Source: Vicinamibacterales bacterium (GTDB lineage Bacteria; Acidobacteriota; Vicinamibacteria; Vicinamibacterales; UBA8438). From it: a stretch of DNA of 64,000 nucleotides. The stretch covers positions 3,456,701 through 3,520,700 of the forward strand of contig OZ241843.1 in the NCBI GenBank assembly GCA_965202695.1, read 5' to 3'. The notes below the pieces were generated by a model. It worked only from the letters and a program-made list of their open reading frames with translations, did not search any database and was not told the origin of the DNA. Shown in pieces: positions 29,869 to 45,699 of the stretch. Numbering within the stretch: position 1 is the stretch's first letter; every line of letters starts with the position of its first letter. A program made the translations under genes and the position numbers.

Positions 29869-29916
29869 GACAGCCCGTGGTGGAATCCCCGCGTCGCACC
29901 GCGCCCGCGGGCTGTC
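29869..29916 (+). repeat. Dispersed intergenic repeat family, copy D (48-bp minimal hairpin form)
   Basis: gACAGCCCGtggtggaatccccgcgtcgcaccgcgcccgCGGGCTGTc has perfect 9-bp inverted termini. It shares cagcccgtgg and ccccgcgtcgcaccgcg (17 nt) with copy C. TATCAT lies directly upstream. Confidence 0.7.
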
Positions 29917-29984: not shown

Positions 29985-31322
29985 ATGTCGTCCTTTCTGC
30001 GCCGGTTGAACGTCTTCGTGCGGCGCCGGATTCAGCCGGCCTGGTGGCATCTCCACGGCGCGATGCGGAGCCTTCGGGCACGCGTCGGATCGCGGTCGGC
30101 GGACGGAACGCGGGACGGGTCCGCGGTCGTCTTCGATCTGCGCGGCTACAACCCGATCGGCTGGCGGCGCGACGCCGGCGGCGTGGCGGCGCTGGGGCCG
30201 CCGCGGCGGCTGCCGCCCGGCGTCGAAGCGGAACGCGTCGTCCGGCGGCGCAGCCTGCGCCGGCTGCGCCGGGTCCACCACCTGGAGGACGTCTCGGCGT
30301 TCCACCCGGACGTCGTCACGCGGGCCCGCGACCTCGCCCGTCTGGCCGCGGCGGGCGCCCTGGTGCGCGTGGCGGATGGAGACCGGCGGCTCCGGCCGTT
30401 GCTCGGCGACCGCCTCTACCGGTTGATGACCACGGACATGCGCGGTCTCGACGACGACACGCGCGAGCAGCTCGGCGTCCGGATGCGCCGCGCCGCCCTC
30501 CGCGAACATTCGTCGTGGGCCCGCGCCCGGCGGGTCGGTCCGGAAGCGCTGCCCCTGCTGTCCATTCTGCTGGCGACCCGGCGTCCCCGCTTCCTGCCGT
30601 GGGCGCTGGCCAACGTGGCGAGACAGACCTATCCGCGGGTGGAGCTGGTGCTGGCGCTGCACGGCGCGGGGTTCGCCGAGGTCGAGCCGCGGGCGGCCGT
30701 GGCGGCGCACGCGACGAAGGTGCTGCGGGCGCCGGCGAGCGAACCGCTCGGCGCCGTGCTCGACGCCGCGGTCGAGGCATCGAGCGGAACGCTGCTGACC
30801 AAGATGGACGACGACGACGCATACGGCGCCGACCATCTGTGGGACCTCGTGCTGGCGCGGGAGTACTCGGGCGCGCAACTGGTCGGCAAATGGCTGGAAT
30901 TCGTCTATCTGGCCGCGTCGGACCGCACCATGCGCTGGTTCAACGGGCGCAGCGAGCGCTACCAGGCGTCGGTCCTGGCCGGGGGCACGCTGCTCGTTTC
31001 GCGCCGCGATCTCGACCGCGCCGGCGGCTGGCGAAAGGCGCCGCGAGGCGTCGATACGGCGCTGGCGGCGGACGTCCTGCAGGCCGGCGGGCGGATCTAC
31101 CGCACCCACGCCGCCGGCTTCATGATGGTCCGACACGGTTGCGGCCATACCTGGAACGACGCCGACGGGTCGGACGACAGCTTTCTCGCCAGGGCCGACC
31201 GCGTATGGCCCGGGTTCCAGCCGGGCCGGGCCGGCGTCGAAGCCCCGCGCATCCCGCATCCGGCGCTGTCCCCGTCCGCGGATCGGACACCGCCGGGGGC
31301 CCATCCGGCGGACGACCCCTGA
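29985..31322 (+). CDS. Glycosyltransferase family 2 (GT-A domain in the C-terminal half) with a ~170-aa N-terminal extension
   Basis: LLSILLATRRPRFLPWALANVARQTYPRVELVL...KMDDDDAY (DxD motif); trimmed from ORF 29325..31322. Confidence 0.7.
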   Translation: MSSFLRRLNVFVRRRIQPAWWHLHGAMRSLRARVGSRSADGTRDGSAVVFDLRGYNPIGWRRDAGGVAALGPPRRLPPGVEAERVVRRRSLRRLRRVHHLEDVSAFHPDVVTRARDLARLAAAGALVRVADGDRRLRPLLGDRLYRLMTTDMRGLDDDTREQLGVRMRRAALREHSSWARARRVGPEALPLLSILLATRRPRFLPWALANVARQTYPRVELVLALHGAGFAEVEPRAAVAAHATKVLRAPASEPLGAVLDAAVEASSGTLLTKMDDDDAYGADHLWDLVLAREYSGAQLVGKWLEFVYLAASDRTMRWFNGRSERYQASVLAGGTLLVSRRDLDRAGGWRKAPRGVDTALAADVLQAGGRIYRTHAAGFMMVRHGCGHTWNDADGSDDSFLARADRVWPGFQPGRAGVEAPRIPHPALSPSADRTPPGAHPADDP

Positions 31323-31602
31323 CAATGCCGGCGTCGAAGCCCGGGCGTCCCCGCATCCGGCGCCGTCCCGTCCGCCGCGCGTGGACCGGCCGCCGGTCTG
31401 CGGTTACAATATACGCGCCAATGGCTGGACTTCGGGTCCGCGAGGCGTCGCCGGGTATCGTCGCGCCGGGCGCGGCCGACGAGGCCGCACGTCTGCGGCG
31501 GCGGCTCGACCGCCGCAACGAACAGGCGCCCGGGCCGCGCCGGAGCCGGTTCGGGAGCTCCCGGAACCCCGGCCTCGTGCGCATGAGGGAGACGACACGA
31601 AC

Positions 31603-32565
31603 ATGAGCGAGTCCGAGCAAATCGACGCGTTCCAGGTGTTTCTGCGCATCCAGCGCGCGCGCGCCGCGAAGGGCCCTCTCTCGCTCGTTCGACTCAATGA
31701 CGCGGAAGGCACCATGCTCGGCTATCCGCGCTTCACCAACCGTGACGACGTGAACGCGCACATGTACGTCTGGTTCGGCACGAGGTCCGGCGCGAGGTCG
31801 TCGAGGTGGCAGCGCCGCATATACATGAGTTCCAGACTCAAGCGGCTCGGCCGCTTCACCAGGACGTGGCCGGAAAGGGAAGTCCTCGCGCTGGCGGACG
31901 GCCTGAAGCACGCCGTGGCGACCGCCGACGTCGTCGGCCTGCCCCTGAAGAAGCACGTGGAGGCGAGTCCCCAGATGGCCGCGGTCGAAAAATCGCTGAC
32001 GGCGTTCCGCCTGACCGGCGAATCGACGGCGCTGACGAGCGCGGCGGTTCACCGGTTCCTGAACAGCGCCCTGCTGTATCGACCGATGCTGAAGGACGCG
32101 GACTTCGTGGGGGTCGTTTCCAGCCGGGACGTCGTGGAGAAGCTGCGGCGGCTGTTCGGCGCCGGGGAGATTCGCTGGTATCCGACGAGAGCCGAGCCGG
32201 ATTGTCCCAACGACGTTGCGATGCCGCACTGGCCGGACGGGTTCAACCGGATCCGGGAAACTCTGGAAGTTCCGTATCCTGGAGCGCTGTTCCTGGTCGG
32301 CGCCGGTATATGCGGCAAGATATATTGTCAGTGGATAAAGGAACGCGGAGGGGTTGCGGTCGACATCGGTTCGATGTTCGACTCCTGGGCCGGGGTGGGC
32401 CGGACCGGAAGTCCGGTGCGCAACCTCGACGTGTACGAAAGGTACCCGCGGATCGGCCGGACGGAGGCGATGGTCCGTTACAACACCATCGCCGAGGCAT
32501 TGAACGACGGCGTGCGCGTGGACGCCGGCGCCGGCTACGTCGCCGATCTCCCGGAGTACTGGTAA
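31603..32565 (+). CDS. Hypothetical protein, possibly a GT-D-fold glycosyltransferase (DUF1792-like)
   Basis: LVRLNDAEGTML near the N-terminus and LFLVGAGICGKIYCQWIKERGGVAVDIGSMFDSW resemble the GDGE and Rossmann blocks of DUF1792 as I recall them. The gene call is solid; the function call is weak. Confidence 0.4.
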   Translation: MSESEQIDAFQVFLRIQRARAAKGPLSLVRLNDAEGTMLGYPRFTNRDDVNAHMYVWFGTRSGARSSRWQRRIYMSSRLKRLGRFTRTWPEREVLALADGLKHAVATADVVGLPLKKHVEASPQMAAVEKSLTAFRLTGESTALTSAAVHRFLNSALLYRPMLKDADFVGVVSSRDVVEKLRRLFGAGEIRWYPTRAEPDCPNDVAMPHWPDGFNRIRETLEVPYPGALFLVGAGICGKIYCQWIKERGGVAVDIGSMFDSWAGVGRTGSPVRNLDVYERYPRIGRTEAMVRYNTIAEALNDGVRVDAGAGYVADLPEYW

Positions 32566-32603
32566 TCCGGCGTTTCACCACGGCGGTCAAGGAACAAGCG
32601 GTC

Positions 32604-33524
32604 GTGACGTACGAGACCGTCATCGGCGGGAAGCCCATCGTGTCGGTGCGTTGGCTCTGGAAGACTTTCCGGCTCGCCTGGAACCTCCGTTGCGATCCGG
32701 GTCGGGCGCGGGACATCGGCCGCGAATTGTTGCGAGGGAGATTTGCCCGGGCGGGCCGCATGGTCCGGACGGCGTCGCGCTCCCCCAAGGTCCGCAACGA
32801 AGCCGTCGCTTCGCGGAAGTTCCGGTGTCTCTGGCTCCCCAACTCCAAGGTGGCGTCGCGGAGCGTCAGGGTCGTCCTGCACGAAGCGGATCCGGATGCG
32901 GTGACCTTTGTCGACAAGTCCGTCGCCGAAATCTGCGCCGACCACCCGGAAGTGATGGACTACTACAGTTTCGCGTTCATCAGGCATCCTTTCGAGAGGG
33001 CGCTGTCGTTCTATGCGCACCTGTTTCTTCTTTCTCTGGAAAGCTACCCGGAAGACCAGTTTTCCTTCAGCATGGCGATCCGCCGTGAAGTCTTTCGCCA
33101 TTTTCACGGGCTGGAGGACGTGCGCAGTTTCGACGACTATTGCGACTGGCTGAACACGCCCTGGGGCTCCGATCGGTTCGCCGACCGTCACTTCCGGTCG
33201 CAGCACGTGCAGATACGCTTGCCGGACGGCCGCCTGCCGGATTTCGTCGGCAGACTGGAGAACATCGGCGACGACTTCGAACGCGTTGCGGGGCAAGTCG
33301 GCATGCCGAGGCCGACGTTGCCGATGCGGGGCACGAGAGCCGGGTGGTCGGCGCCGCCGGCCGCGGTGGAGTCGGCCAGAGCGGCGATGCGCGCTCATTT
33401 GACCGCCCGGAACCGGGCGCTGCTGGCGGCCAGGTACGAGGGTGACCTGACGCTGTACCGGAGCCTGTGCGGGGAGCGTCCGGCGTTGCCGGCGGCGGCG
33501 CGCTGTCTTCCAATCACGGGATGA
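32604..33524 (+). CDS. Carbohydrate sulfotransferase-like protein (Sulfotransfer_2 / CHST-like), copy 1
   Basis: FRCLWLPNSKVASRS is 5'-PSB-like and YSFAFIRHPFERALSFY is 3'-PB-like. Paralog of 35284.. and 43654... The GTG start at 32604 is tentative. Confidence 0.65.
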   Translation: MTYETVIGGKPIVSVRWLWKTFRLAWNLRCDPGRARDIGRELLRGRFARAGRMVRTASRSPKVRNEAVASRKFRCLWLPNSKVASRSVRVVLHEADPDAVTFVDKSVAEICADHPEVMDYYSFAFIRHPFERALSFYAHLFLLSLESYPEDQFSFSMAIRREVFRHFHGLEDVRSFDDYCDWLNTPWGSDRFADRHFRSQHVQIRLPDGRLPDFVGRLENIGDDFERVAGQVGMPRPTLPMRGTRAGWSAPPAAVESARAAMRAHLTARNRALLAARYEGDLTLYRSLCGERPALPAAARCLPITG

Positions 33525-35263
33525 ACTTGAAATTCCCGCGGCTGCGCCACCTCTCGGCGGCCGGACCGGCCATCGGCAGGTGTTCTTCACGGAGCACGAT
33601 CGAGGGCGCGGCGCCTGGGCGCAGCCGGGCCGGAAAACCCGTTCCGCGGACGAATGTCCGCGGCCTGCATCGGCGCCTGCGGCGTGCGGCGCGCATCGCC
33701 CTGCGCGTCGATCGGGGCATCGCCGAGCGCTATCTCGCGGGAACCCCGCGGCCCAAACTGCACGTGGGCTGCGGCGGTCACGTGCTGGAAGGCTGGCTGA
33801 ACTCCGACCTGTTCCCCGGCTCCACCAACGTCCTTGGCCTGGATGCGACGAATCCATTTCCCTTTTCGGCGGACACCTTCGCATACGTGTACAGCGAGCA
33901 CGTGATTGGGAGCCTGTCTTTCGAGGGTGCGGCCCTCATGCTGGACGAGTGCTTTCGGGTGCTTGCTCCGGGCGGCAAGCTGCGCATCGTCACTCCTGAC
34001 CTGGCCTTCCTGACGGACTTGTACGGGCGGAATCTCTCGGAGACGCAGAAACGGTACGTCGAGTGGTTCGGTGCTGAAACCGGGTCGCCGCGTGGGGAGA
34101 TCGGTTTCGTGGTCAACGGCTACATGCGCGCGTGGGGGCTTCAGGTCGTGTATGACGCCCGCATGCTGTGCGGCGCGCTCGACGCCGCCGGCTTCTCCGA
34201 CGTGACGCGGCGCGGCCTGAACGAAAGCGACGACGGCGCGCTGCGCAATCTGGCGAACGAACGGCGGCTGCCGGAGGACCTTCTGCGGTTGGAGTCGCTC
34301 ACGGTCGAAGGGAGCAAGCCGAACCCGAGTTCGCGGGACGGCGGCGAGCGGGGTTCCCACGGTCGGCATGCGATCCGCGGCCGCTCGGGCGCGGCGGCCG
34401 TCGGGGGCGGCGGCCGAGGCGTCGCCGCCGCGGTCGGGCGTTCGGTTTCGGCGCGGGGCCGATGCTGGTTGCAGAGGCTGGTCCACGGCGGACGCCAGCT
34501 GCGGCGGCGCGCGTCGCGCATCGTGCGGCGCACGGAACGACGCATCGTCGAGAGCTATCTCGCGGAGACCCGCGAACCGAAGTTGCACCTCGGCTGCTAC
34601 GAGGAGATCTTCGACGGCTGGTTGAACGCCGATCTGGCGCCGCGCTTCGCGGAAGTGATGCGCGTCGATGCGGAGCGTCCGTTGCCCTTTCCGAACGACA
34701 CGTTCGTATACGTGTACAGCGAGTACATGCTGGGTTCCGTCGCCTTTCGGAGAGTGCCGGCCATGTTGCAGGAATGCTTCCGGGTGCTGGCCCCCGGCGG
34801 CAAGTTGCGAATCGCGACGACCGACATGGCTTTTCTCGCCCGTCTGTGCGGTCCGGAACGCTCTCCCTTGCAGCAGCGGTACATGCGGTGGGTGGGCGAC
34901 CGTCGCCTGATGCGGTGCCGGCACGGTCTGTGCCGCGAGTGGCGGCGGCCGCGGGGCGCGCGAACCCCCAGGGGAACCGCGCGCCGACCGCGGCCGGTCG
35001 AACCCGGCGTCTTCTTCAACCATCACCTCCATGCGGACTCGGAGCGGTTCATTTACGACGCGCCGGTCCTGGGCGGGATGCTCGAAGGCGCCGGGTTTTC
35101 GAACGTCGTGCGATGCGGACTGAACCGGAGCGACGATTCGGCGCTGTGCGGCCTGGCGAACGAGAAGCGGATGCCGGACGGTTTTCTCGATATGGAATGT
35201 CTGGTCCTGGAAGCCACCAAGCCGGTCGAGCACGGCCTTGCGGAGTCCACCGGTCGGTATTGA
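33521..35263 (+). CDS. Tandem-fused double SAM-dependent methyltransferase (two Methyltransf_11/23-like modules in one ORF)
   Basis: Module 1 carries KLHVGCGGHVLEGWLNSDL...ECFRVLAPGGKLRIVTPD. Module 2 carries KLHLGCYEEIFDGWLNADL...ECFRVLAPGGKLRIATTD. The start forms an ATGA overlap with the upstream stop. Confidence 0.7.
   Translation: MNLKFPRLRHLSAAGPAIGRCSSRSTIEGAAPGRSRAGKPVPRTNVRGLHRRLRRAARIALRVDRGIAERYLAGTPRPKLHVGCGGHVLEGWLNSDLFPGSTNVLGLDATNPFPFSADTFAYVYSEHVIGSLSFEGAALMLDECFRVLAPGGKLRIVTPDLAFLTDLYGRNLSETQKRYVEWFGAETGSPRGEIGFVVNGYMRAWGLQVVYDARMLCGALDAAGFSDVTRRGLNESDDGALRNLANERRLPEDLLRLESLTVEGSKPNPSSRDGGERGSHGRHAIRGRSGAAAVGGGGRGVAAAVGRSVSARGRCWLQRLVHGGRQLRRRASRIVRRTERRIVESYLAETREPKLHLGCYEEIFDGWLNADLAPRFAEVMRVDAERPLPFPNDTFVYVYSEYMLGSVAFRRVPAMLQECFRVLAPGGKLRIATTDMAFLARLCGPERSPLQQRYMRWVGDRRLMRCRHGLCREWRRPRGARTPRGTARRPRPVEPGVFFNHHLHADSERFIYDAPVLGGMLEGAGFSNVVRCGLNRSDDSALCGLANEKRMPDGFLDMECLVLEATKPVEHGLAESTGRY
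34947..34995. repeat. 49-bp near-perfect palindrome embedded in frame in methyltransferase module 2
   Basis: ggccgcgg-ggcgcgcg-aacccccaggggaac-cgcgcgcc-ga-ccgcggcc. It encodes the Arg-rich insert RRPRGARTPRGTARRPRP, which module 1 lacks. Confidence 0.8.
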
Positions 35264-35283
35264 CGACGGCGGCATGGAGGCGG

Positions 35284-36156
35284 ATGTCGACCAGACACCG
35301 GTTGAAGGCGGCGGTTGAACTCGTTCGAATGTCGCTGCGTCATCGGGGCGTCGCGCGGGACGTCGTGGACGCGCTGGCGCGCGGGAGAGGTCGGGACCTG
35401 CGCTGCCTGGCGCGCCACGCGCGGCGAACGCCGGACGTCAGAGCGGAAAAGGTCGTGTCCCGGAAGTTCCGGTATCTCTGGATCTGCAATCCGAAGGTGG
35501 CGTCGCGGAGCATCATGTCCGCGCTGTTGTCCGTGGACCCGGATGCGGACGTCATCTTCGGAAAAACGGCCTCGGAAGTTCATGCGGCGCACCCGGAAGC
35601 GAGGAGCTACTACAGCTTCGCGTTCATCAGGCACCCCTTCGACCGCGCGCTCTCGTGGCATGTGAACATGCGTTTCTCCCGGGAGCGCGTCGAGGGAGTA
35701 ATGCACCACGTCGCCCTGCTGAGACAGAAGCAGAACCTTGCGGAGTCCTTTTACGGACTGGCGGAGGTGGATGGTTTCGACGACTTCTGCGCGTGGTTGA
35801 ACACGCCTTACGGTTCGGATGCATTCGCCGACAGGCATTTCTTGTCCCAGAAAGCGCAGATAAGTCTCGAAGACGGCCGCCTGCCCGATTTCATCGGCTG
35901 TCTGGAGAACGTCGAAGACGACTGGCGGCGCGTGGCGGCCCGGCTGGCCCTCCCGGTCTCGGAACTGCCGAGATTGAACACGATGGCCGGATGGCGGGCG
36001 CCGTCGCGGCAGGCGCTGCAGGCGGCGCGCGCGGCGGCGCGCGTTCTTCTGACGGAGCGGAACGAGGCGTTGCTGAGAAGACGGTATGCGGCCGACCTGG
36101 AGCTTTATGAGAGCGTTTCGAAGGCCGGAAATCGTGGGCGGGAGCGCCGGCCATGA
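35284..36156 (+). CDS. Carbohydrate sulfotransferase-like protein (Sulfotransfer_2 / CHST-like), copy 2
   Basis: FRYLWICNPKVASRS and YYSFAFIRHPFDRALS motifs. It aligns end-to-end with 43654..44526. Confidence 0.7.
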   Translation: MSTRHRLKAAVELVRMSLRHRGVARDVVDALARGRGRDLRCLARHARRTPDVRAEKVVSRKFRYLWICNPKVASRSIMSALLSVDPDADVIFGKTASEVHAAHPEARSYYSFAFIRHPFDRALSWHVNMRFSRERVEGVMHHVALLRQKQNLAESFYGLAEVDGFDDFCAWLNTPYGSDAFADRHFLSQKAQISLEDGRLPDFIGCLENVEDDWRRVAARLALPVSELPRLNTMAGWRAPSRQALQAARAAARVLLTERNEALLRRRYAADLELYESVSKAGNRGRERRP

Positions 36157-37295
36157 ACGTCCTCGTGGATCTGCTTTTCATCGTGCCGGGAAGGAACCGG
36201 GGGGTCAGAACCTATGTGGACAACCTGCTGACGGAGATGAGGGACGTGCCCGGTACGAACGTCACGTGCCTCACCAATCGGCGCAACCACGACTATTATC
36301 GGAACGAGCTGCGGTTTCGATGCCGCGCCGCTCCGGTCGGGGGCGGCAACCGGGGCATCCGGTTGCTGTACCAACAGGTCGGGACCGGACTCGCGGCGAA
36401 GAGAATCGGGGCGGACGTGCTCTTCTGCCCGGGATTTTTTGCCCCGGTCCTTGCCGGTCTTCCCACCGTCGTGACTGTCCACGACGTGGGTTTCGAGGAC
36501 ATTTCGGCGTCGGCGCCGGCGGCGCACCGGTTGGTCCAGAGGCTGTTGATTCCCCCGGGCGTCCGTTCCGCGTCGCGGATCGTCACGGTTTCCCGGTTTT
36601 CGAAGGACCGCATCATGGAGGAGCTGGGCATCGCCGAGGACCGGATTGCCGTGATCCACAACGGACCTCCGTTGAACCTCGACGCGTCCGCGGAGAGCGA
36701 CTGGCCGCGCCTTCGACGGGAACACGGGGTGCGCGGCCGGTTCTTTCTTTCCATTTCCGACGGCCGTCCGCACAAGAACGTCGCGCGGCTGGTTCGCGCA
36801 TTCGTGAAGATGAAGAAGGTGTGCGGCGGCGACTGGCAGCTCGTTCTCGTGGGCCACGAGCTGGACGGAGAGACCCGGGCGCACATGGTGCGAGAGGGTT
36901 TCGGCGACGACGTGATCGCGACCGGGTTCGTGAGCGAAGCGGAGAAGATCTCGTTCTTGAGAAATGGTTTCGCCCATGTCTTTCCGTCCTTGCACGAAGG
37001 GTTCGGTCTGCCCGCGCTCGAGGCGCAGTCGTGCGGCCTGCCGCTGGCGTCGTCGAGATACGGCAGCCTTCCGGAAGTATGCGGTGAAGGGGCGGTCTAT
37101 TTCGATGCGACGTCGGTCGAGAGCATTGCCGCCGTCTTGATCGAACTCTGCCGGAACGCCGCTTTGCGGGAAAGGATCGTCAAGAAGGGGTACGAAAACG
37201 CGGGTCGTTTTTCGTGGAGACGGGCGGCGATTGCAACGGCGGCGGTTCTGGAAAGCGCCGCCCGAGGGGAGCCGAAGCGCGGCGGTCATGGCTGA
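36153..37295 (+). CDS. Glycosyltransferase family 4 (GT-B)
   Basis: FPSLHEGFGLPALEAQSCGLP (E-x7-E region); ATGA overlap with the upstream stop. Confidence 0.8.
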   Translation: MNVLVDLLFIVPGRNRGVRTYVDNLLTEMRDVPGTNVTCLTNRRNHDYYRNELRFRCRAAPVGGGNRGIRLLYQQVGTGLAAKRIGADVLFCPGFFAPVLAGLPTVVTVHDVGFEDISASAPAAHRLVQRLLIPPGVRSASRIVTVSRFSKDRIMEELGIAEDRIAVIHNGPPLNLDASAESDWPRLRREHGVRGRFFLSISDGRPHKNVARLVRAFVKMKKVCGGDWQLVLVGHELDGETRAHMVREGFGDDVIATGFVSEAEKISFLRNGFAHVFPSLHEGFGLPALEAQSCGLPLASSRYGSLPEVCGEGAVYFDATSVESIAAVLIELCRNAALRERIVKKGYENAGRFSWRRAAIATAAVLESAARGEPKRGGHG

Positions 37296-37322
37296 CCGGG
37301 GTCGGTCGCGGCCGCGCTACGC

Positions 37323-40151
37323 ATGGACCGCAACGGGGCCTGTCCGTTGACTGCGAAAGCCGTTCCGCGGCCGAACGCCGTTCGATACAACGACTGGCGC
37401 GAAGTCGGCGTCGAAGCCCTGGACGTCTTCACGCCGTCCCTGCCGGTGAGCGTCGTCGTTCCGTGCTGGCAGACGCCGGACAGGACGCTGGCCGTGACCC
37501 TGGCGGGGTTGGAAAGGCAGTCGTATCCGCGCCGCCTGTTCGAGGTGGTCCTCGTCGACGACGGTTCGCGGCCGCCGCTGCGAGCGCCGGCCGTGACGCC
37601 GCTCGACCTGAAGGTCGTGCGTCAGGAGCGCCGCGGATTCGGGCTGGCGCGGGCGCGGAACGCGGGCGCCCGCGCGGCCGCCCACGACGTCCTTCTGTTT
37701 CTGGACAGCGACGTTCTCGTGGAGAAGGACTGGATCGCGGCGCACGCGCGGTGGCATCATGCCGTCTCCGACGTCGTGACGACGGGGCACGTGGCCCACG
37801 TGGGTATGGACGGCGTCGATCCGGAGACCATTCGGCTCCGGGGCGGGGCGTTGCGGGAGCTGTTTTCGGACCGGGCGACGAGGAACCCCGGGATAGAGAG
37901 CCACCTGGCGGCGACCGGTGGTCTGACGTCGCGGCGGGACGATCCGTTCCGGATGACGTCCGGCGGGAATCTGGGTGTGGGCAAGGCGTACTACGAGCTG
38001 GTGGGCGGGTACGACGAATCGTTTGCGCGCTGGGGATTCGAGGATACGGAGTTCGGCTACCGGGCGTACTGCCGCGGCGGACTGCTGGTGCCGGAACCGG
38101 ATGCCTTCGCGTGGCATCAGGGCGTCTGGAGGGAGGAAAGGGAAGCCAAGGCGCGGAGCCATCAGATCCAGCGTGGAAAGGCGGCGCACCTGATTGCCCA
38201 TCCCGATTTTCGCAGCGATCAACCCGGCCGCTTTTTCGCGGTGCCCCAGTTCGTGGTGACCGTCGTCGATTCCGCTGCGAAGCGGCGCTCGACCAGCTCG
38301 GTCGTACGGGCGGTGGCGAACGTCCTCGCCGACCGGGTGCACGACCTCGTGGTGAGGATCGAAACGGACGCCGGGGACGGCGGCGAGCGGGTGGCGCGGC
38401 TTCGGGAAGAGTTCGCTCCCGACCCGCGGGTGCGCGTGGTCCCCGCGCGCCCGGCCCTCGACGAGTTTCCGGTGTCGCCGTTCCAGGTCGTGCTTCCCGC
38501 CGTCGGGTTTGCGAGGGGCGTGGTGCATCGTCTCCGCGCCCGGCTGGGGGACGCGGTCACGGCGACCGCGGATCTCGCCGACGGAAGCGCGGTTTCGATA
38601 ACCCGCGCGTGGGCGTTGCACCGGGCGCGCCGCACGGGCCGGCGCGCAAGCGACTTCGGCGATGCGCGAACGGTGCCCGTCTGGGCGTTGAAGCTCGATG
38701 CGGCCGGCCGGCGGAGCGCCGCGGACGCTCCGGAGTCGGAATGCTATCCTGATACGCGGGAGCGGCTGTTGGCGAGGGCGCGAAACGTCCGCGGTCCGGG
38801 CGACGCCTGGGCGTTTCTGGGCTGGCTGGGCGAAACCGGACGCCGGAAGGCGGATACGGCCTGGCGCGCGGCCGGTCAGCGTCTCCGGCTCGCGAGGCGA
38901 AGCCGCCGCGGAACGGCGCGGTCGGCGGCCCCGGGACGCCGGATGCCGAAGGAACGTCCGCCGTTCGGCGTCCGGCGGGTCGTGTTCGTCGCGAACGGGC
39001 TGTCGGCCGGGGGCGTCGAGCGGGACATCGTCAACCTCGCCGCCGGTCTGGAACGTCGGCGCCAGCACGTCGAGGTGCTGAAGTATGCGCCGGAGGATTT
39101 CTTCGCCGCGGATCTGGCGGCCGCCGGCGTTCCCGTGGCGGACGTCCATGCCCGCGGCCGGCTCGGGTTGATCTTCGCCATGCGCAGGGCCATTCGAAGC
39201 CGCCGGCCCGACGTGGTCGTCGCCTTCGACTGGGGACCGAACAAGCTGGCGGTCCTGGCGGGTCTGCCCCGGCGCGAGTTCGCGGTCATCGTGTCGGAAC
39301 GCAGTCTCGACGCGTCCGGCCGAAGCATGAAGCGGAGGCGCCTGCACTATGCCCTGCACCTGCTCGCCGACGCCGTGGTGACGAATTCCCACGCGCAGCA
39401 GGGGCGTATGATGGAGCGGGCGCCGTATCTGGCGAAACGCATTCGGGTCATCGTCAACGGCGTCGATCTGGAGCGGTTCTCGCCACGTTCCGATGACGGG
39501 CGCCGGCCGGAGAGCGCGGACCGCCTGCGAGTGCTGGCCCCGTCGCGGATACGCGAGGAGAAGAATCCCATCGGATTGCTGGAAGCGGTGGACGTCGTCC
39601 GCCGGGAACGGCCGTCGCTGCGCCTGACGATAGACTGGTACGGGAATCCGGTGGCCGCGGACGAGGGACGCGTGCCCGGATGGGAGCTTCGCTCCCGCCG
39701 GCGTTCCGCGGGGTACCACCGTCGCCTGCGGCAGGCCATCGCCGAGCGTGGCTTGCAGGACCGGTTCCGCCTGCATCCGGCCGCAAGAGACGTGACGCCG
39801 CTTTACCGGGCGGCGGACGCCGTCTGTCTGCCGTCGTTCTTCGAGGGGACCTCCAACGTCGTTTGCGAGGCCATGGCCTGCGGCGTTCCGCTGCTGGTCA
39901 GCCGGGTCGGCGACAACCCGCGCCTGGTGCGGGACGGCCGCAACGGACTGCTGTTCGACCCGGAGTCGCCGCGGGACATCGCCGATGCGATCCTGCGCTT
40001 CGCCGACACGCCGGCCGACGGCCGGCGCCGCATGGGGATGGAGAGCCGCCGCATCGCGGAAGCGACGTTGTCGGAGAGCGTGTTCGTGGACCGCTACGTG
40101 AAGCTGATGGACCAGCTGTGCCGCTCGGGCGAACGGAGAGTCGCTCCATGA
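37323..40151 (+). CDS. Bifunctional fusion: N-terminal GT2 module (+ accessory domain) and C-terminal GT4 module
   Basis: The N-terminal half carries VSVVVPCWQT...VLVDDGS...GFGLARARNAG...WGFEDTEFGYR. The C-terminal half carries VVFVANGLSAGGVERDIV...LPSFFEGTSNVVCEAMACGVP. Confidence 0.75.
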   Translation: MDRNGACPLTAKAVPRPNAVRYNDWREVGVEALDVFTPSLPVSVVVPCWQTPDRTLAVTLAGLERQSYPRRLFEVVLVDDGSRPPLRAPAVTPLDLKVVRQERRGFGLARARNAGARAAAHDVLLFLDSDVLVEKDWIAAHARWHHAVSDVVTTGHVAHVGMDGVDPETIRLRGGALRELFSDRATRNPGIESHLAATGGLTSRRDDPFRMTSGGNLGVGKAYYELVGGYDESFARWGFEDTEFGYRAYCRGGLLVPEPDAFAWHQGVWREEREAKARSHQIQRGKAAHLIAHPDFRSDQPGRFFAVPQFVVTVVDSAAKRRSTSSVVRAVANVLADRVHDLVVRIETDAGDGGERVARLREEFAPDPRVRVVPARPALDEFPVSPFQVVLPAVGFARGVVHRLRARLGDAVTATADLADGSAVSITRAWALHRARRTGRRASDFGDARTVPVWALKLDAAGRRSAADAPESECYPDTRERLLARARNVRGPGDAWAFLGWLGETGRRKADTAWRAAGQRLRLARRSRRGTARSAAPGRRMPKERPPFGVRRVVFVANGLSAGGVERDIVNLAAGLERRRQHVEVLKYAPEDFFAADLAAAGVPVADVHARGRLGLIFAMRRAIRSRRPDVVVAFDWGPNKLAVLAGLPRREFAVIVSERSLDASGRSMKRRRLHYALHLLADAVVTNSHAQQGRMMERAPYLAKRIRVIVNGVDLERFSPRSDDGRRPESADRLRVLAPSRIREEKNPIGLLEAVDVVRRERPSLRLTIDWYGNPVAADEGRVPGWELRSRRRSAGYHRRLRQAIAERGLQDRFRLHPAARDVTPLYRAADAVCLPSFFEGTSNVVCEAMACGVPLLVSRVGDNPRLVRDGRNGLLFDPESPRDIADAILRFADTPADGRRRMGMESRRIAEATLSESVFVDRYVKLMDQLCRSGERRVAP

Positions 40152-41179
40152 AACTCGCGCACGTCGTCGTCACGATTTTCTGCGTTCGGACGCGGGACAT
40201 GTTCAGGCACGTGCACGGACCGGTCTGGAGCGAGCGCGACCCGTTGCGGCGCCGCTACGTGAATTATCGCCTGAAACTTCTCGAAACGATCTGTCTGCCG
40301 AGCATCCTGGCCCAGAGCTGCCGGGACTTCACGTGGGTGATTCTCGTGGACGGCGACCTCGACGCGGTCTCCCGGGAGAGACTCGAGCGCGTGGTTCGTC
40401 CGGGCCGCGCGGACGCGCGGATCAGGCTGCGCGAGTACCGTCCGGGCGACGGGCGCGGGATGGAGAAGCTGGGCTGGTTGAAACCGTATCTGGCGGAGCG
40501 GCCGGATTACGTCGTCACCACGGCCTGCGACAGCGACGAAGCGTTGCCGCGGCGTTTCGTCGAGACGGTTCGCACCCACGTCGACGGCCTCGCGGCGCGG
40601 GGCGCGTTGCCCCTGGTCCAGATCATGGGAATGAAGAAGGCGTCGATCTGGGACATGCTGTTCACGCGCGAGGCGCCTTTTGGATGGGTTCGGGACGACC
40701 ACCGGTTGCCGCACGTCGGGAGCAGCGGTTTCGCCCTGTTGTCGCGTTACTCTTGCGACGTCAGCGTCATGGGCATGAGGCATACGCGGGCCGAAGCCTA
40801 TTTCGGAAACGGCCCTGGGAACCGGCATCTGGACTTCTACCGGCGGAGGTTCCGGGAAACGCTCGGACCGGCGGTTCCGACGCCCGACGAGGGGTTCTTC
40901 GACGTAAGCTCGGCCGGTGGCACGCTGGTCACCAATCACGGGGCCAACGTGGAACTCTCGCAGTGGCGCCCGGCCGTCAACTCGCGATTGGCCAACGGTG
41001 TCGTCTGGGAAATGTTCAAGGGCGCGCCGCCCGGGCGCCGCAAGGTCACGGAGGCCGAAACGTTTCAAGACTTCGCGATAGATTGGAACAAGCTCCGGCT
41101 CCACGCTCGGGATTTCAACCGTTGGCGGGTTGCGCTCAGGACCATCGAGCGGAAGTTTCACCCGTCCAACTCCAGTTGA
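40148..41179 (+). CDS. Putative rhamnosyltransferase-like protein (Rhamno_transf / PF11316-like)
   Basis: HVVVTIFCVRTR...RLKLLETICLPSILAQSCRDFTWVILVD resembles the N-terminal signature of that family as I recall it. ATGA overlap with the upstream stop. Confidence 0.45.
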   Translation: MKLAHVVVTIFCVRTRDMFRHVHGPVWSERDPLRRRYVNYRLKLLETICLPSILAQSCRDFTWVILVDGDLDAVSRERLERVVRPGRADARIRLREYRPGDGRGMEKLGWLKPYLAERPDYVVTTACDSDEALPRRFVETVRTHVDGLAARGALPLVQIMGMKKASIWDMLFTREAPFGWVRDDHRLPHVGSSGFALLSRYSCDVSVMGMRHTRAEAYFGNGPGNRHLDFYRRRFRETLGPAVPTPDEGFFDVSSAGGTLVTNHGANVELSQWRPAVNSRLANGVVWEMFKGAPPGRRKVTEAETFQDFAIDWNKLRLHARDFNRWRVALRTIERKFHPSNSS

Positions 41180-41368
41180 ACACCGGGAACCTTTGCCTCG
41201 GACCGCCGGTTCCCGCGGACGTGTGATCGCGCGGCCGCCAGCGGAAGTCGCCCGGGAGGAGACGATCCGTCCCGACCGAGCAGGACCGGGGGGCGGGACC
41301 TGGTCTGGATCCGATTCGGAAGGATGCATCGACGTCCAGGCGACGGGAACCTCGAACCAGGACCGAAG

Positions 41369-42892
41369 ATGGACCCGCGACCCAATTCCGTCTGGTACAA
41401 CGACTGGCGGCAGGTGGACGTGGAGCCGCTGGAGACCTTCACGCCGGCCCTGCCGGTCAGCATCATAGTTCCCTGCTACCAGACGCCGGCCGCGGCGCTG
41501 GAGAGGACCCTGGCTTCGCTCGAAGGCCAGACCTATCCGCGGAAGATGTTCGAGGTGATACTCGTCGACGACGGTTCCGATCCGCCGCTGGCGCGGCCGC
41601 CTTCGACGCCGCTGGACGTGAAGGTCGTACGGAGGGAAAGAGGCGTATCGGGAAACACCCTGATGCGCAGCACCGCCGGCCAGGCGCGCGGCGCCGGCGT
41701 TCGGGCCGCGGCCCACGACATACTGCTCTTCGTCGACAGCGCCATGCTGGTCGAAGCCGGCTGGATGGCGGCGCACGCCCGTTGGCATCACGCGGTTTCC
41801 GACGCCCTCACCGTGGGCGTTCGCGCGCACGTGGACGTGTCGGACCTCGACGCGGAGTTGATTCGGAGCCGGCCGGGAACGCTGCGGGAACTGTTTTCGG
41901 ACCGGCCCACCGACCCGCCGCGGTATGAACGCCAACTGGCCGAAACCGATGATCTGACGTCGCGGGCGGACGATCCGTTTCAAATGGTCGTCGCAGGAAA
42001 TCTCGGGATACGCAAGCGTTTCTACCGGGCGCTGGGGGGGTTCAACGAGTCGTTCACGTTCTGGGGGCTCGAAGACGTCGAACTCGGCTACCGGGCCTAT
42101 ATTCGCGGCGGGCTGCTGGTGCCGGTTCGGCATCCCGGCGCCTGGCGTCAGGGCCGCTGGGACGACGACCGCGTCGCCAAGCGCCGAAGCACGCGGATCC
42201 AGCGTGGGATAGCGGCTCAATTCATCGCCGACCCGTGGTGCCGCGGTGACCGGCCCGGTCGGATCTTCACGGTGCCGCGGTACGTGGTGACCATCGACGC
42301 GGGACGATGTCCGGTTCACCGGGTCATCAGGGCGGTCGATGACGTTCTGACCGACCGCGCGCATGATCTGGTCGTGAGAATCGAAATGGATGCGAGCGAG
42401 GACGACGAACGATTCGTACGGCTGCGGGCGGAGTTCGGTCGAGACCCGCGGGTGCGCGTCGCTCCCGAGCGCGACGCCCTCGACGCCTTTTCCGCGTCGC
42501 CGTTTCACGTCAGGCTTCCCGCGGCGGTGGTCGCCAGGAACCTGGTGCATCGTCTGCGCAAGAAGCTGGGCGATGCGGCCACCGCGGTCTCCATTCTGCC
42601 GGGGGGCGGCACGGTGTCGATCACCCGGGCGTGGGCGCTTCACCGGGCGCGCCGCACCGGAAAGGACGTCGCCGTCTTCGGCGAGGCGCGGACGATACCC
42701 GCCGCCGCATTGAGGCTTGCGGTTGCCGGACGGACGGACGGCGCGGATCGCGGCGGGAGGGCGCCGGCCGGGGGCCGCGCGGCCCGTTGGCGCCGCGGGA
42801 CGGGGAACCTCGGTGGTTTCAGCGAGGCGTGGACGGTCCTGAAGCGCTGGAAGATTTCGGCGTGGCGGCGAGTGGTCGAGAAATTGCAATGA
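41369..42892 (+). CDS. Glycosyltransferase family 2 (+ accessory domain), paralog of the N-terminal half of 37323..40151
   Basis: Shared blocks are YNDWRxV, VSIIVPCYQT, AAHARWHHAVSD and SITRAWALHRARRTG. The usual GFG-x-ARN block is replaced by VSGNTLMRSTAGQARG. Confidence 0.7.
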   Translation: MDPRPNSVWYNDWRQVDVEPLETFTPALPVSIIVPCYQTPAAALERTLASLEGQTYPRKMFEVILVDDGSDPPLARPPSTPLDVKVVRRERGVSGNTLMRSTAGQARGAGVRAAAHDILLFVDSAMLVEAGWMAAHARWHHAVSDALTVGVRAHVDVSDLDAELIRSRPGTLRELFSDRPTDPPRYERQLAETDDLTSRADDPFQMVVAGNLGIRKRFYRALGGFNESFTFWGLEDVELGYRAYIRGGLLVPVRHPGAWRQGRWDDDRVAKRRSTRIQRGIAAQFIADPWCRGDRPGRIFTVPRYVVTIDAGRCPVHRVIRAVDDVLTDRAHDLVVRIEMDASEDDERFVRLRAEFGRDPRVRVAPERDALDAFSASPFHVRLPAAVVARNLVHRLRKKLGDAATAVSILPGGGTVSITRAWALHRARRTGKDVAVFGEARTIPAAALRLAVAGRTDGADRGGRAPAGGRAARWRRGTGNLGGFSEAWTVLKRWKISAWRRVVEKLQ

Positions 42893-43653
42893 TAGTATCT
42901 CACCGGCATGAATTCATATTCGTGCGCCCGCGCAAGGCCGCCGGCACCAGCATTCAGCTTTCGTTGGCCCGCGTGTGCGGCGAGCACGACGAAATCGACG
43001 GCGCGGACGTATTCGATCCGCGCGTGGACACCGATTGTTTCGGCCCGATGGAAGTGCGGAATCGCCGATCTGTTTCAGTGGATCGATGGGGGCACGTTCT
43101 GCCGGGTGCGGTCCGCGAGTCGGTCGGCGCCAGGATATGGGACAACTATTTCAAGTTCACCGTACTCAGAAATCCGTTCGACCTGATCGTGTCCTATATC
43201 TACTTCAAGTTCACGGCCGACTGGGTGGGGATCCTGGGACGGAACCCGTACCTGTTCCGCAGGCCGCGCTACGCTTTTCGACGCCTGGATCTGGCTCGGA
43301 CGCGCCGCTTGTTTCTGCAGGGCCGCCGCCGGGAAAGCGTCGAACGGATTCTGAAAAGGGCATTTTACAGGAATATTCACGAAGTTCCGATGTTCTACTT
43401 CCTGGACGGACAGGAATATGCGGATTACTACGTGCGCTACGAAAACTTGCAGGACGATTACGACGAATTGTGTCGACGGTTGCAGATTCCTTCGCAGAAA
43501 CTTCCCAGAACCAAGGACAAGTTGAGAGAGGCAGGTGACGATTATCGCGATTATTATTCGGACTGGTCGTGGGAATATGTCGCGGATTTGTGCCGGGACG
43601 TGATAATGAACTGGTATCCTGAACTTCAGACCCGTCGCTTCCGTCTTCCTTGA
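42889..43653 (+). CDS. Divergent sulfotransferase-like protein (copy 4), in a visibly lower-G+C segment
   Basis: FIFVRPRKAAGTSIQ is P-loop-like (5'-PSB) and FTVLRNPFDLIVSYIY is 3'-PB-like. ATGA overlap with the upstream stop. Confidence 0.5.
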   Translation: MIVSHRHEFIFVRPRKAAGTSIQLSLARVCGEHDEIDGADVFDPRVDTDCFGPMEVRNRRSVSVDRWGHVLPGAVRESVGARIWDNYFKFTVLRNPFDLIVSYIYFKFTADWVGILGRNPYLFRRPRYAFRRLDLARTRRLFLQGRRRESVERILKRAFYRNIHEVPMFYFLDGQEYADYYVRYENLQDDYDELCRRLQIPSQKLPRTKDKLREAGDDYRDYYSDWSWEYVADLCRDVIMNWYPELQTRRFRLP

Positions 43654-44526
43654 ATGAATGTCCTGGCGTCGACGAATCGCCGACTGGGCGCGGCGTCCGC
43701 GCTCGCCGTGGCGCCGTTTCGGCATCGCGGCGTCGCCTCGGGCATCGCTGGCGCGCTGGCGCGCGGGCGGTTCCGGGACGCCCGACGCATGGCGCGCACG
43801 GCGTCGAAGTCGGCGGATCGCGGGGCGGAAAAGATCGTGTCGCGGAAACTCCGCTGTCTCTGGATGTGCAACCCCAAGGCGGCGTCGCGGAGCATCATGT
43901 CGGCGCTGCTTTGCCTGGACCCGGACGCGGAAGTCATCGAGGGAAGGGCCGTCGCCGACGTTTGCGCGATGCGCCCGGAAGCGAGGGACTACTACAGCTT
44001 CGCGTTCATCAGGCATCCTTTCGACCGCGCGCTCTCGCTGTATGCCGAGATGCGTTTCTTTCGGAAGCGCTACGAGGGAATGCACCGCCTTCTGAAGGCG
44101 AGGCGGCAGCGGTACCTTGACGATTCGTTCTTCGGGCTGGCGGAGGTGGGCAGTTTCGACGACTACTGCGCGTGGCTGAACACTCCGTGGGGCTCCGATG
44201 CGTTCGCCAACGGACATTTCCTGTCGCAGAACGTCCAGATACGTCTCGAAGACGGCCGCTTGCCCGATTTCGTCGGCCGCCTGGAGAACATCGAGGAAGA
44301 CTGGCGGCGCGTGGCGGCGCGGCTGTCCGTCCCGGCGCCGGAGCTGCTGACGTTGAACACGATGGCGGGATGGCGGGCGCCGTCGCGGCCGGCGCTGGAG
44401 GCGGCCCGCGGGGAGATGCGCGTCCTTCTGACGGAGCGGAACAGGACGCTGCTGCGCAGACGCTACGCGGCGGACCTGGAACTGTACGCCGGGGTTGCGA
44501 AGGGCGATGCGCGGGACGGGCGGTGA
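43654..44526 (+). CDS. Carbohydrate sulfotransferase-like protein (Sulfotransfer_2 / CHST-like), copy 3
   Basis: LRCLWMCNPKAASRS and YYSFAFIRHPFDRALS motifs. The start abuts the previous stop (TGAATG). Confidence 0.7.
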   Translation: MNVLASTNRRLGAASALAVAPFRHRGVASGIAGALARGRFRDARRMARTASKSADRGAEKIVSRKLRCLWMCNPKAASRSIMSALLCLDPDAEVIEGRAVADVCAMRPEARDYYSFAFIRHPFDRALSLYAEMRFFRKRYEGMHRLLKARRQRYLDDSFFGLAEVGSFDDYCAWLNTPWGSDAFANGHFLSQNVQIRLEDGRLPDFVGRLENIEEDWRRVAARLSVPAPELLTLNTMAGWRAPSRPALEAARGEMRVLLTERNRTLLRRRYAADLELYAGVAKGDARDGR

Positions 44527-44676
44527 GGCCGCCGCCCCCGTGCTCATCGGCGCGACGGCCAGGTTGCGAAGGGCGGCGCGCGGGCGTGCGATGAGGCGTC
44601 GGCGCGGGACGCGCGGACCCGCGGCGGTTCGCATCGCCGAAGTGCGGGGCGCGGCGCGGTCGGACCGGGGGCGCCG

Positions 44677-45699
44677 ATGAAGCTCGTGCGCGGGAAGACG
44701 GCGTGGGATCTGGCGTACCGCAGCGGGCTCTCGGCGGCGATCGGGCGCCGTTACGGCGGCATCGGCTCCGTCTTCCTGTTTCACCACGTCGTGCGCGACG
44801 TTTCAGTTCACTTGAACGACGATCTGTACGTCAGTGCGGGGTTCCTGGAAGCGTGGCTGATCGCGCTGCGCCGGGCCCGGGTCGACGTGATTTCCCTTGA
44901 CGAGGCGGTCGAGCGCATCCGGGACCCGGGCCGCGGCCGCGCCGGGCGGCGTTTCGTCGTCATCACCTTCGACGACGGATACGCCGACAACTTCGAGTGC
45001 GCCCTGCCGGTGCTGGAGAGGCTGGAGGCGCCCTTCACGGTGTACGTCACGACGGACCTGGTCGAGGGCGGCGGCCGCTTGTGGTGGATCGGTCTGGAGC
45101 GGCTGATCGAGGAGAACGACGTGGTCGACGTGGCGCCCATGGGGCGGCGGTTCCCGACCGCGTCGTTCCGGGAGAAGGCGGATGCGCTCGAGGCCGTGAC
45201 CCGTTGGGTGTGGACGGACGTCGGTCGGCGCGCGCCGCGGTTGCGCGCGGTCTTCGAACGCCACGGCCTGTCCTCGAGCGCGGCGGGCCTGTCGCGGGAG
45301 CAGCTTCGCGTGCTCGGCCGCCACCCGCTGGCGACCATCGGCGGCCATACGTCGGGCCACGCATGGCTGGCGGGTCTGAGCGAACCGGAGGCGTACCGTG
45401 AAATGTCGGACAACAAGACGTTTCTCGAGAACGTCTGCGGGCGCCCGGTCGACCACTTCGCCTATCCCCACGGCGCCGGCGGCGCGCGGGAAGCGGCGCT
45501 GGCCGAACGGGCCGGTTTCGAGACGGCGGTCACGAACCGGGTCGGTTGCCTGTTCCCCGCGCATCGGGACCACCTCCGGTCGTTGCCGCGCCATCCGTGC
45601 GGAGGTTCCAGAATGTGGCTGAGCTTCATGCACGCGCAACGGCACGGCATGCGGCGTTTCGTCGAGAGCCGCGGCGGACGTCCGGTGGTCACGCTCTGA
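44677..45699 (+). CDS. Polysaccharide deacetylase (NodB-homology, CE4)
   Basis: VVITFDDGYADN, then ...HTSGH... and ...FAYPHG blocks. Confidence 0.75.
   Translation: MKLVRGKTAWDLAYRSGLSAAIGRRYGGIGSVFLFHHVVRDVSVHLNDDLYVSAGFLEAWLIALRRARVDVISLDEAVERIRDPGRGRAGRRFVVITFDDGYADNFECALPVLERLEAPFTVYVTTDLVEGGGRLWWIGLERLIEENDVVDVAPMGRRFPTASFREKADALEAVTRWVWTDVGRRAPRLRAVFERHGLSSSAAGLSREQLRVLGRHPLATIGGHTSGHAWLAGLSEPEAYREMSDNKTFLENVCGRPVDHFAYPHGAGGAREAALAERAGFETAVTNRVGCLFPAHRDHLRSLPRHPCGGSRMWLSFMHAQRHGMRRFVESRGGRPVVTL

Follow-up and report, generated by a model that had tools for sequence, protein, structure and literature searches.

A conserved twelve-gene cluster with four predicted sulfotransferases in a Vicinamibacterales bacterium, a candidate pathway for a multiply sulfated glycan

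How could a bacterium make and place a glycan with twelve enzymes that appear to be soluble and have no membrane partner beside them? This question is raised by a stretch of 64,000 nucleotides from a Vicinamibacterales bacterium (phylum Acidobacteriota; assembly GCA_965202695.1, contig OZ241843.1, positions 3,456,701 to 3,520,700), called here the window, whose own coordinates are used throughout. A cluster between genes for tRNA-Thr and UvrA encodes predicted glycosyltransferases (GTs), a double methyltransferase (MT), a deacetylase and four sulfotransferases (STs). The answer that we regard as moderately probable is that the cluster products assemble and tailor, on the cytoplasmic face of the membrane, a lipid-linked, hexosamine-containing, multiply sulfated glycan, with the membrane steps encoded elsewhere in the genome.

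Organization of the cluster

Since the G+C content of the window is about 72%, raw lists of open reading frames (ORFs) are noisy, and genes were called using the frame plot of third-codon-position G+C (GC3) together with ORF tables. The cluster consists of twelve co-directional genes, G1 to G12, at 29985-45699, with the following borders and members:

29146-29221, minus strand: tRNA-Thr(cgt), left border (ARAGORN; Rfam RF00005, 73 bits)
29985-31322, plus strand: G1, 445 aa, soluble, divergent GT2-like domain in the C-terminal half
31603-32565, plus strand: G2, GT-D-fold-like glycosyltransferase (PF22882, 48.7 bits; NF040628, 33 bits, sub-threshold)
32604-33524, plus strand: G3, PF03567 sulfotransferase, 50.1 bits
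33521-35263, plus strand: G4, fused double S-adenosylmethionine (SAM) methyltransferase with Methyltransf_23 (residues 76-228) and Methyltransf_11/25 (residues 377-430)
35284-36156, plus strand: G5, PF03567 sulfotransferase, 53.2 bits
36153-37295, plus strand: G6, GT4 (Glycos_transf_1, 88 bits; Glyco_transf_4, 63 bits)
37323-40151, plus strand: G7, bifunctional by Pfam, GT2 (7C-type, chondroitin-synthase-like) and GT4 (MshA-like)
40148-41179, plus strand: G8, PF11316 Rhamno_transf ('putative rhamnosyl transferase'), 51.5 bits
41324-42892 (or from ATG 41369), plus strand: G9, GT2 and Glyco_transf_7C by Pfam
42889-43653, plus strand: G10, divergent PF03567 sulfotransferase, 33.5 bits
43654-44526, plus strand: G11, PF03567 sulfotransferase, 43.7 bits
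44677-45699, plus strand: G12, CE4 deacetylase (Polysacc_deac_1, PF01522, 66 bits, cut-off 23.1)
45836-48754: uvrA, right border

Inspection of start codons confirmed four ATGA start/stop overlaps (33521, 36153, 40148 and 42889) and a start, that of G11 (43654), which abuts the stop of G10; an alternative TTG start of G5 (35260) would overlap the G4 stop. With its overlapping genes and short gaps, the cluster looks operon-like. The same layout and the same gene families had been proposed in a first-pass annotation made from the sequence alone. The layout was reproduced by the frame plot, the ORF tables and the start codons, and the families by the Pfam scan, with the refinement that the GT2 hit of G1 (19.2 bits) lies under the 23.3-bit cut-off, while those of its orthologues (26.5 and 39.5 bits) pass it.

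No transmembrane (TM) or signal-like segment was found in any of the twelve proteins by a 19-residue Kyte-Doolittle scan, which does detect the TM segments of neighboring membrane proteins; the proteins are thus probably soluble, in line with the earlier annotation. The sole stretch above the threshold (G6, residues 85-103, hydropathy 1.72) we read as the buried core of the GT4 N-terminal domain and not as a TM segment.

Sulfotransferases

All four predicted STs pass the gathering cut-off of Pfam PF03567, Sulfotransfer_2 (33.5-53.2 vs 22 bits), and carry the residues of the binding site for the sulfate donor PAPS (3'-phosphoadenosine 5'-phosphosulfate). In the 5'-phosphosulfate-binding (5'-PSB) motif, which across the four proteins reads PKVASRS, PKAASRS, SKVASRS or RKAAGTS, the lysine and the downstream serine are invariant in alignments of 6 and 22 sequences that include relatives from other loci. 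In the 3'-phosphate-binding (3'-PB) motif, Arg-x7-Ser is invariant in all four STs aligned with relatives. It has the form RHPFxRALS in G3, G5 and G11 and RNPFDLIVS in G10, where Arg-x7-Ser is kept and the inner arginine of PxxRxxS is absent. According to a 2024 review, the PSB lysine and the PB Arg...Ser are the residues that define the PAPS site of PF03567 (PMC11625862). The sulfotransferase assignment of the first-pass annotation, which named eukaryote-type CHST motifs, holds. G10 is the outlier also in other respects: it is 23% identical to G3, lacks the N-terminal helical extension and has large insertions.

The family assignment places the four proteins together with eukaryotic STs, namely the heparan sulfate 2-O-sulfotransferase (HS 2-O-ST) and CHST8-14 with the HNK-1 ST. 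Both groups have the same PAPS-binding strand-loop-helix lysine and the same 3'-phosphate Arg...Ser helix. Beyond the PAPS site, however, the similarity is marginal (E~1) and the substrate-binding regions are unrelated. Moreover, the window STs are soluble, and three of the four have an N-terminal three-helix extension in place of the Golgi TM anchor of the eukaryotic enzymes.

The subfamily is large. At 90% identity it falls into at least 405 clusters, and no source gives a functional name to any of them. A search of 1.84 billion representatives returned 110 clusters at 50% identity with E ≤ 1e-30; the number rises to 3,430 with E ≤ 1e-10 and to 16,750 with E ≤ 1e-3. The statement that bacterial carbohydrate STs are uncommon, made at first pass, therefore holds only for characterized bacteria. 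Likewise, four STs in one locus are less unusual than had been thought, as two of the loci compared below (L081 and L084) also have four to five ST domains.

In L084, from another environmental genome, five PF03567 domains, one of them fused to a Caps_synth glycosyltransferase, lie within about 11 kb (4381-17912). Beside them are a fragmentary UDP-glucose dehydrogenase, an epimerase and a transposase, as well as an ABC exporter of fused type. The window is hence not alone in having several STs in one locus.

Glycosyltransferases, methyltransferase and deacetylase

The cluster had been described as one of glycan-tailoring enzymes. This is true of the STs, the MT and the CE4 deacetylase, but seven GT domains would also build the glycan, so that the cluster is better seen as a glycan-assembly operon than as a set of tailoring enzymes alone. 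Weak hits of GT4 domains to defense-system models were considered and rejected, since general GT4 models score far higher.

The G1 protein is 63-71% identical to homologues in seven loci of other genomes (L001, L002, L082-L085 and L088). At E ≤ 1e-10, the other cassette loci gave no homologue of G6. The best match of the G7 GT2 domain in the PDB is 2z86, a chondroitin synthase (E=1.9e-22), and the same holds for G9 (E=1.9e-17), with polypeptide GalNAc-transferases next in both cases. G9 is a paralogue of the N-terminal domain of G7 (54-59% identity). The GT4 domain of G7 best matches 3c4q/3c48 (E=7e-15), deposited as 'Predicted glycosyltransferases', which we take to be MshA, a GlcNAc transferase.

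Among solved structures, the K4 chondroitin polymerase K4CP (E. coli KfoC, PDB 2Z86) is thus the nearest to the GT2 domains of G7 and G9, with about 330-390 residues of its N-terminal half aligned, a half that we take to be the hexosaminyl-transferase (A1) domain. The similarity is distant. The second GT2 domain of K4CP, a glucuronyl-transferase, has no counterpart in G7 or G9, and G7 is fused to a GT4 domain instead; the window also lacks ABC export genes of the kps type. Neither protein has the two tandem GT2 domains, alternating between N-acetylhexosamine and glucuronic acid, that characterize a glycosaminoglycan (GAG) synthase, and Pfam scans found no UDP-glucose dehydrogenase in the window. 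The PDB relatives of G7 and G9 are a weak hint at a hexosamine-rich glycan, with which the presence of a CE4 enzyme is consistent.

This enzyme, G12, contains the CE4 metal-binding and catalytic motifs TFDDG and HTSGH. It has neither a signal peptide nor a TM segment (maximum hydropathy 0.98) and is probably cytoplasmic.

The cassette family in other bacteria

A look-up of the exact G7 protein gave no record. The best genome match of G7 (81% identity) is in L001, a Vicinamibacterales chromosome that is a metagenome-assembled genome (MAG), followed by Dehalococcoidia MAGs (L002-L005, 54-56%). Seven non-syntenic, ST-bearing loci were compared with the cluster (L001, L088, L002, L082, L083, L084 and L085), as well as one syntenic locus, L081. 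The window, L081 and all seven non-syntenic loci each contain homologues of G1, G9 and G11 together; CE4 is present in five of the seven and MT in three. A core of this type, usually with MT and CE4, is found in many uncultured bacteria, Dehalococcoidia among them. G11 is the window ST nearest to STs of other cassettes (62-68% identity in L001, L002, L085 and L088). Among the loci examined, G2, G6, G8 and G10 are seen only in the uvrA-adjacent type of cluster.

Each of the seven non-syntenic loci has a membrane partner. A Polysacc_synt (Wzx/MOP) flippase is present in L002, L082, L083 and L085 (44-58% identity among themselves), and L084 encodes a fused ABC exporter. A polytopic membrane protein, called here protein X, is found in four loci, where it always adjoins a G1-like gene and is 54-57% identical across phyla:

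L001, 15770-17773: protein X
L002, 9398-11068: protein X
L085, 8388-10001: protein X
L088, 10001-11746: protein X

Neither the window nor L081 has a membrane partner embedded in the cassette. Normally, members of this family have membrane partners of their own; the window/L081 type thus appears to be a variant free of membrane genes. Protein X has at least 1818 homologues; those listed have no Pfam domain or name.

In L088 (8998-10011, 337 aa) and L001 (about 15025-16032), a gene for a GT2 with two or three C-terminal TM helices lies directly upstream of the protein X gene and overlaps it. Polyprenyl-phosphate sugar synthases, GtrB and ArnC among them, are built in this way, which suggests a periplasmic glycosylation step in loci of the L001/L088 type.

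Only two proteins of the window are specially close to L001 and L088: G7 (78-81% identity) and a protein encoded beyond uvrA (84-87%):

50038-51384, minus strand: HGHPDH-motif protein, 447 aa, soluble, no Pfam hit

G1, the STs and CE4 are about equally far from all relatives. The homologue of the HGHPDH-motif protein is encoded directly upstream of the G7-like gene in both L001 and L088, and a link of this protein, whose motif is metallo-beta-lactamase-like, to the glycan pathway is possible; a role as a hydrolase or sulfatase would be speculation.

Conservation and history of the cluster

Three contigs from other samples (L086, L087 and L089; one metagenome series and one SRA run) match the cluster with 99.4-99.5% nucleotide identity over up to 12.7 kb without gaps. 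As these copies are independent, the cluster is not an assembly artefact.

The syntenic locus L081 has the same flanks as the window (DUF418 ... uvrA) and 14 genes: one-to-one orthologues of all twelve, at 70-90% identity (84% for G2), and two extra Rhamno_transf paralogues, which makes three genes of the G8 type in total. A second contig, L090, has the same 14-gene variant. Each ST of the window pairs with its own orthologue in L081:

G3 with k3, 70% identity
G5 with k7, 77% identity
G10 with k12, 85% identity
G11 with k13, 89% identity

The ST duplications therefore predate the split of the two lineages, and all four copies have been retained. Comparison of the window with L081 by the Nei-Gojobori method gives ratios of nonsynonymous to synonymous substitution rates (dN/dS) of 0.17-0.44 in eleven of the twelve genes, the divergent G10 being at 0.17. 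The cluster is conserved and under purifying selection. The twelfth gene, G3 (0.66), appears to be the most relaxed of the ST paralogues.

The window lineage also bears a deletion scar. Residues 2-63 of G4 (33521-33710) are homologous to the C-terminus of a Rhamno_transf paralogue that both L081 and L090 contain, with 64% identity over 44 aa to L081 k5. The two extra Rhamno_transf genes were deleted in the window lineage, which left a remnant fused in frame to the G4 MT; the ATGA overlap at 33521 is then probably a by-product of this event.

In L090, the orthologue of the double MT was called as two ORFs of 364 and 168 aa (6028-7658), which may reflect either a frameshift or pseudogene in this strain or an assembly error.

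The G+C content of the cluster (0.64-0.67 at 32000-44000) is lower than that of its flanks (0.70-0.77), and its synonymous divergence from L081 (dS 0.16-0.55) is two to six times higher than that of the flanking DUF418 gene (0.08). Surface-glycan loci, like sequences of mosaic or foreign origin, typically have low G+C and diverge fast. Here these features suggest that the cluster is foreign or mosaic, and together with the closeness of G7, alone among the cluster genes, to the loci L001 and L088 they indicate a recombinant, mosaic history. A classical tRNA island was considered and rejected: the 5' end of the tRNA-Thr gene faces the cluster, so that it is not a classical 3'-end integration site, and L081 has the same flanks.

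Predicted pathway

In the reading that we favor, a glycan would grow at the inner membrane, on its cytoplasmic face and most likely on a polyprenyl-diphosphate lipid, through the action of six GT proteins with seven catalytic domains, two of them similar to the chondroitin polymerase domain that acts as a hexosaminyl-transferase. G12 would remove N-acetyl groups from hexosamine residues, G4 would add up to two methyl groups, and the four PAPS-dependent PF03567 STs would add up to four sulfates. Since the four STs persist as distinct orthologues, their target positions probably differ from one another, and as PAPS, SAM and nucleotide sugars are cytoplasmic, all these steps would precede membrane crossing. 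The genes for priming, flipping, polymerization or transfer, export and PAPS supply would lie outside the 64 kb. The lipid carrier, the identity of the sugars, the order of the steps, the sulfation as such, its placement on nitrogen or on oxygen and the surface destination are what we infer. The sulfated, methylated, partly de-N-acetylated glycan named in the first-pass annotation stays the most reasonable product, as predicted from the protein families.

The lipid-linked pathway with membrane steps in trans is suggested by the seven non-syntenic relatives, all of which have a flippase, an ABC exporter, protein X or a combination of these. The export route, about which the earlier annotation made no claim, is partly constrained by these partners.

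Several observations weigh against this pathway. Pfam scans covered about 42 window proteins, including about 30 flanking genes (a few short or doubtful ORFs were left out), and detected neither a phosphoglycosyltransferase (PGT) of the Bac_transf or WecA type nor, among the called genes of the window, a flippase, polymerase, ligase or exporter. When the four flippases and protein X of the relatives were compared by tblastn with the whole window, no match was obtained even at E ≤ 1, so that the membrane steps are assumed, not observed, for this genome. The 21 kb examined of the 38.6-kb L081 contig contain no PGT, flippase, polymerase, ligase or exporter either, and no recognizable PGT is present within 10 kb in the loci of the relatives. 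Nor was the sulfotransferase fold confirmed at a significant level: the top Foldseek match of the G5 model is a bacterial sulfotransferase, 3rnl, with E=0.018 and a TM-score of about 0.2, and an ST sequence profile compared with the PDB reached only HS 2-O-ST, at E~1, across the PSB and PB motifs. Finally, the sugar specificities are deduced from distant similarity alone.

The same Pfam scans found no nucleotide-sugar or PAPS-synthesis gene among the called genes, and no Wzy, polysaccharide co-polymerase (PCP) or outer membrane polysaccharide exporter (OPX) in the window; none of the latter three was recognized in the loci of relatives. The absence from the window of priming, Wzx/Wzy, ABC/Wza, nucleotide-sugar and PAPS genes had been noted at first pass and is upheld. 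The only ABC-type protein in the window is UvrA, which is not an exporter.

Alternative explanations

Instead of a polymerized exopolysaccharide or O-antigen, the product could be a lipid-linked oligosaccharide destined for proteins or for en-bloc glycosylation of another kind. After flipping, a GT-C-fold homologue of protein X encoded elsewhere would transfer it a single time to a protein or envelope acceptor. We consider this unlikely. In its favor, protein X is the best-conserved membrane partner and stands, in each of its four loci, beside the G1-like gene; Wzy_C, PCP and OPX families have not been reported in the relatives' loci, and several of these relatives are Dehalococcoidia. Moreover, the three top Foldseek matches of the protein X model are PglB (probability 0.96-0.98), and AftD, a GT-C enzyme, ranks 16th, which is a hint that protein X may be PglB-like. 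Yet the AlphaFold model is itself of low confidence (pLDDT 58.5, pTM 0.56), the matches are weak (E about 0.02, TM-scores 0.28-0.35), and protein X has no sequence match in Pfam, NCBIfam or the PDB. It is also absent from the window, and its position after the GT2 with TM helices in L088 and L001 would equally fit a single-sugar periplasmic decoration.

An explanation to which we assign a similarly low probability dispenses with both the polyprenyl carrier and the exporter: the acceptor would be a glycolipid, a soluble glycan resembling polymethylated polysaccharides, or a small molecule. It would account for the lack of TM segments in all twelve proteins and for the lack of a membrane partner in the 64-kb window and in 21 kb of L081, an arrangement that has been stable in two diverged lineages under purifying selection. 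Bacterial STs that act on glycolipids do exist, Stf0 and NodH, both cited in PMC11625862, being examples. However, every more distant cassette that has the same core contains a flippase, an exporter or a polytopic partner, seven GT domains with a CE4 enzyme are typical of envelope glycan repeat units, and Pfam detects no gene for lipid synthesis, acyl transfer or aglycone synthesis in the cluster.

A bolder version of the assembly pathway, to which we give slightly less credence than to either of these alternatives, is that the product is a bacterial GAG-like glycan. Its hexosamine-rich chain would first lose N-acetyl groups through CE4 and next be sulfated, much as N-deacetylation precedes sulfation in heparan sulfate, and it would be O-methylated too. 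In most lineages a MOP flippase would flip it, and protein X, putatively a PglB-like, GT-C-fold enzyme of a family not recognized before, would transfer it; the Vicinamibacterales version would be a hyper-sulfating offshoot with four STs and no membrane genes, dependent on machinery from elsewhere in the genome.

That a complete cassette has lost its membrane genes here and persists as a decaying or silent remnant without a product is very improbable. The missing membrane genes, the Rhamno_transf relic fused to G4, the relaxed constraint on G3 and the split MT orthologue in L090 could be taken in this sense. Against it, none of the twelve ORFs is disrupted in the window or in the three nearly identical assemblies, and the twelve orthologues in L081 are intact as well; the dN/dS values of eleven genes are low, the cofactor-binding residues are invariant, and the overlaps that would couple translation are preserved.

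That the four PF03567-like proteins are not STs at all, and use another nucleotide-linked donor or have a non-catalytic role, is the least credible explanation: no significant sequence match links them to a solved sulfotransferase (none for G5 among PDB sequences), the fold match is weak and no PAPS-synthesis gene was found nearby, but all four exceed the Pfam gathering score, the residues defining the PAPS site are conserved, and the Foldseek list of the G5 model (pLDDT 85), although without a significant entry, is dominated by sulfotransferases.

Comparison with known clusters

The closest characterized precedent for the proposed assembly of a lipid-linked sulfated glycan is the synechan pathway, encoded by the xss genes of Synechocystis sp. 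PCC 6803, where eight GTs and two STs make an octasaccharide repeat with two sulfates and the STs act within a Wzx/Wzy pathway (PMC8205485). As in the window, many GTs and STs are encoded in one locus; the xss STs act on the lipid-linked repeat before export, and there are as many GTs and STs as expected from the stoichiometry of sugars and sulfates. Unlike the window, xss has its own Wzx, Wzy and PCP and the regulators XssQRS. The host phylum also differs, and in the window the STs number four, all from a single Pfam family, and are accompanied by CE4 and a double MT. The xss genes are on the megaplasmid pSYSM, whereas G11 gave no tblastn match among 72,556 PLSDB plasmids, a collection in which the presence of pSYSM is unconfirmed, and no link to characterized STs on plasmids emerged. 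Seen as export systems, the ST-bearing clusters of cyanobacteria (PF00685, PF03567, PF13469) are in many cases 'partial', as the authors of the synechan study note (PMC8205485).

Two further clusters, wps-1 of Actinoplanes missouriensis (PMC13390465) and one of Pontiella sulfatireligans (PMC7356697), combine GT2/GT4 enzymes, STs and a methyltransferase, as the window does, and their proposed products are sulfated exopolysaccharides or GAG-like polymers. In contrast to the window, wps-1 encodes Wzx, Wzy and Wzz. It has two STs and the Pontiella cluster one, against four in the window; the ST table for Pontiella lists PF13469-domain proteins, and the window STs belong to PF03567. A polysaccharide deacetylase is not described in either cluster, whereas the window has CE4.

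For cyanobacteria, marine gammaproteobacteria, Actinoplanes and Pontiella, ST-bearing polysaccharide clusters are on record, either as described or as predicted. What is new is not the kind of cluster, which is already known, but the phylum, Acidobacteriota; our literature search found no paper mentioning both Vicinamibacter and sulfotransferase. Also new are the combination of four PF03567 paralogues, a double MT and a cytoplasmic CE4 in one operon, and the membership of the cluster in a large, uncharacterized cassette family shared with Dehalococcoidia, with the usual membrane partners absent.

Other features of the window

The 760-bp leader between tRNA-Thr and G1 contains a repeat array:

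29499-29765: 56-bp tandem repeat, 4.6 copies, 87% matches, TRF score 381, G+C-rich

The array was not found in L081, which cannot be aligned to the window at 29395-29915, and it is possibly regulatory. Rfam gave no riboswitch in the leader, the tRNA being the only match, and promoter and terminator scans gave counts not above those of shuffled sequence.

The flanking genes belong, according to Pfam, to defense, beta-lactamase-fold, TonB-receptor, DNA-repair and housekeeping functions. At the left end (298-2398, minus strand) there are a CRISPR-associated protein of the Cas_GSU0053 family and an AbiEii toxin-like nucleotidyltransferase. The segment 15436-19743 comprises a gene for a 942-aa protein with the full planctomycete-type PSD set of domains (DUF1587/1592/1595/1588/1585) and, after it, approximately 1.5 kb (18264-19743) in which no plus-strand ORF with a coding-like GC3 pattern was found. 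ARAGORN also reports a tRNA-Arg(ccg) of 86 nt at 27626-27711 (plus strand), with the anticodon at position 30, that the Rfam tRNA model does not report at its gathering threshold; it is thus probably a false positive.

Significance

Sulfated polysaccharides are still treated as rare in bacteria outside cyanobacteria (PMC13390465, 2026; PMC8205485). A conserved, selected operon with four predicted STs in an abundant soil phylum would provide a concrete candidate pathway for sulfated glycans, and the wide and uncharacterized cassette family supplies candidate genes and a pathway that can be tested. Sulfated GAG-like polymers have been detected by chemical surveys in the matrices of sludge and biofilms, with pathways described as 'not well known' (PMC10483923); if the GAG-like reading were true, producers of the 'sulfated GAG-like' polymers of environmental biofilms and their genes would have been found. 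The twelve soluble enzymes might, moreover, suit the heterologous production of defined sulfated oligosaccharides. Finally, the separation of cytoplasmic chemistry from the membrane steps raises the question of how such modules are shuffled and re-plugged in evolution.

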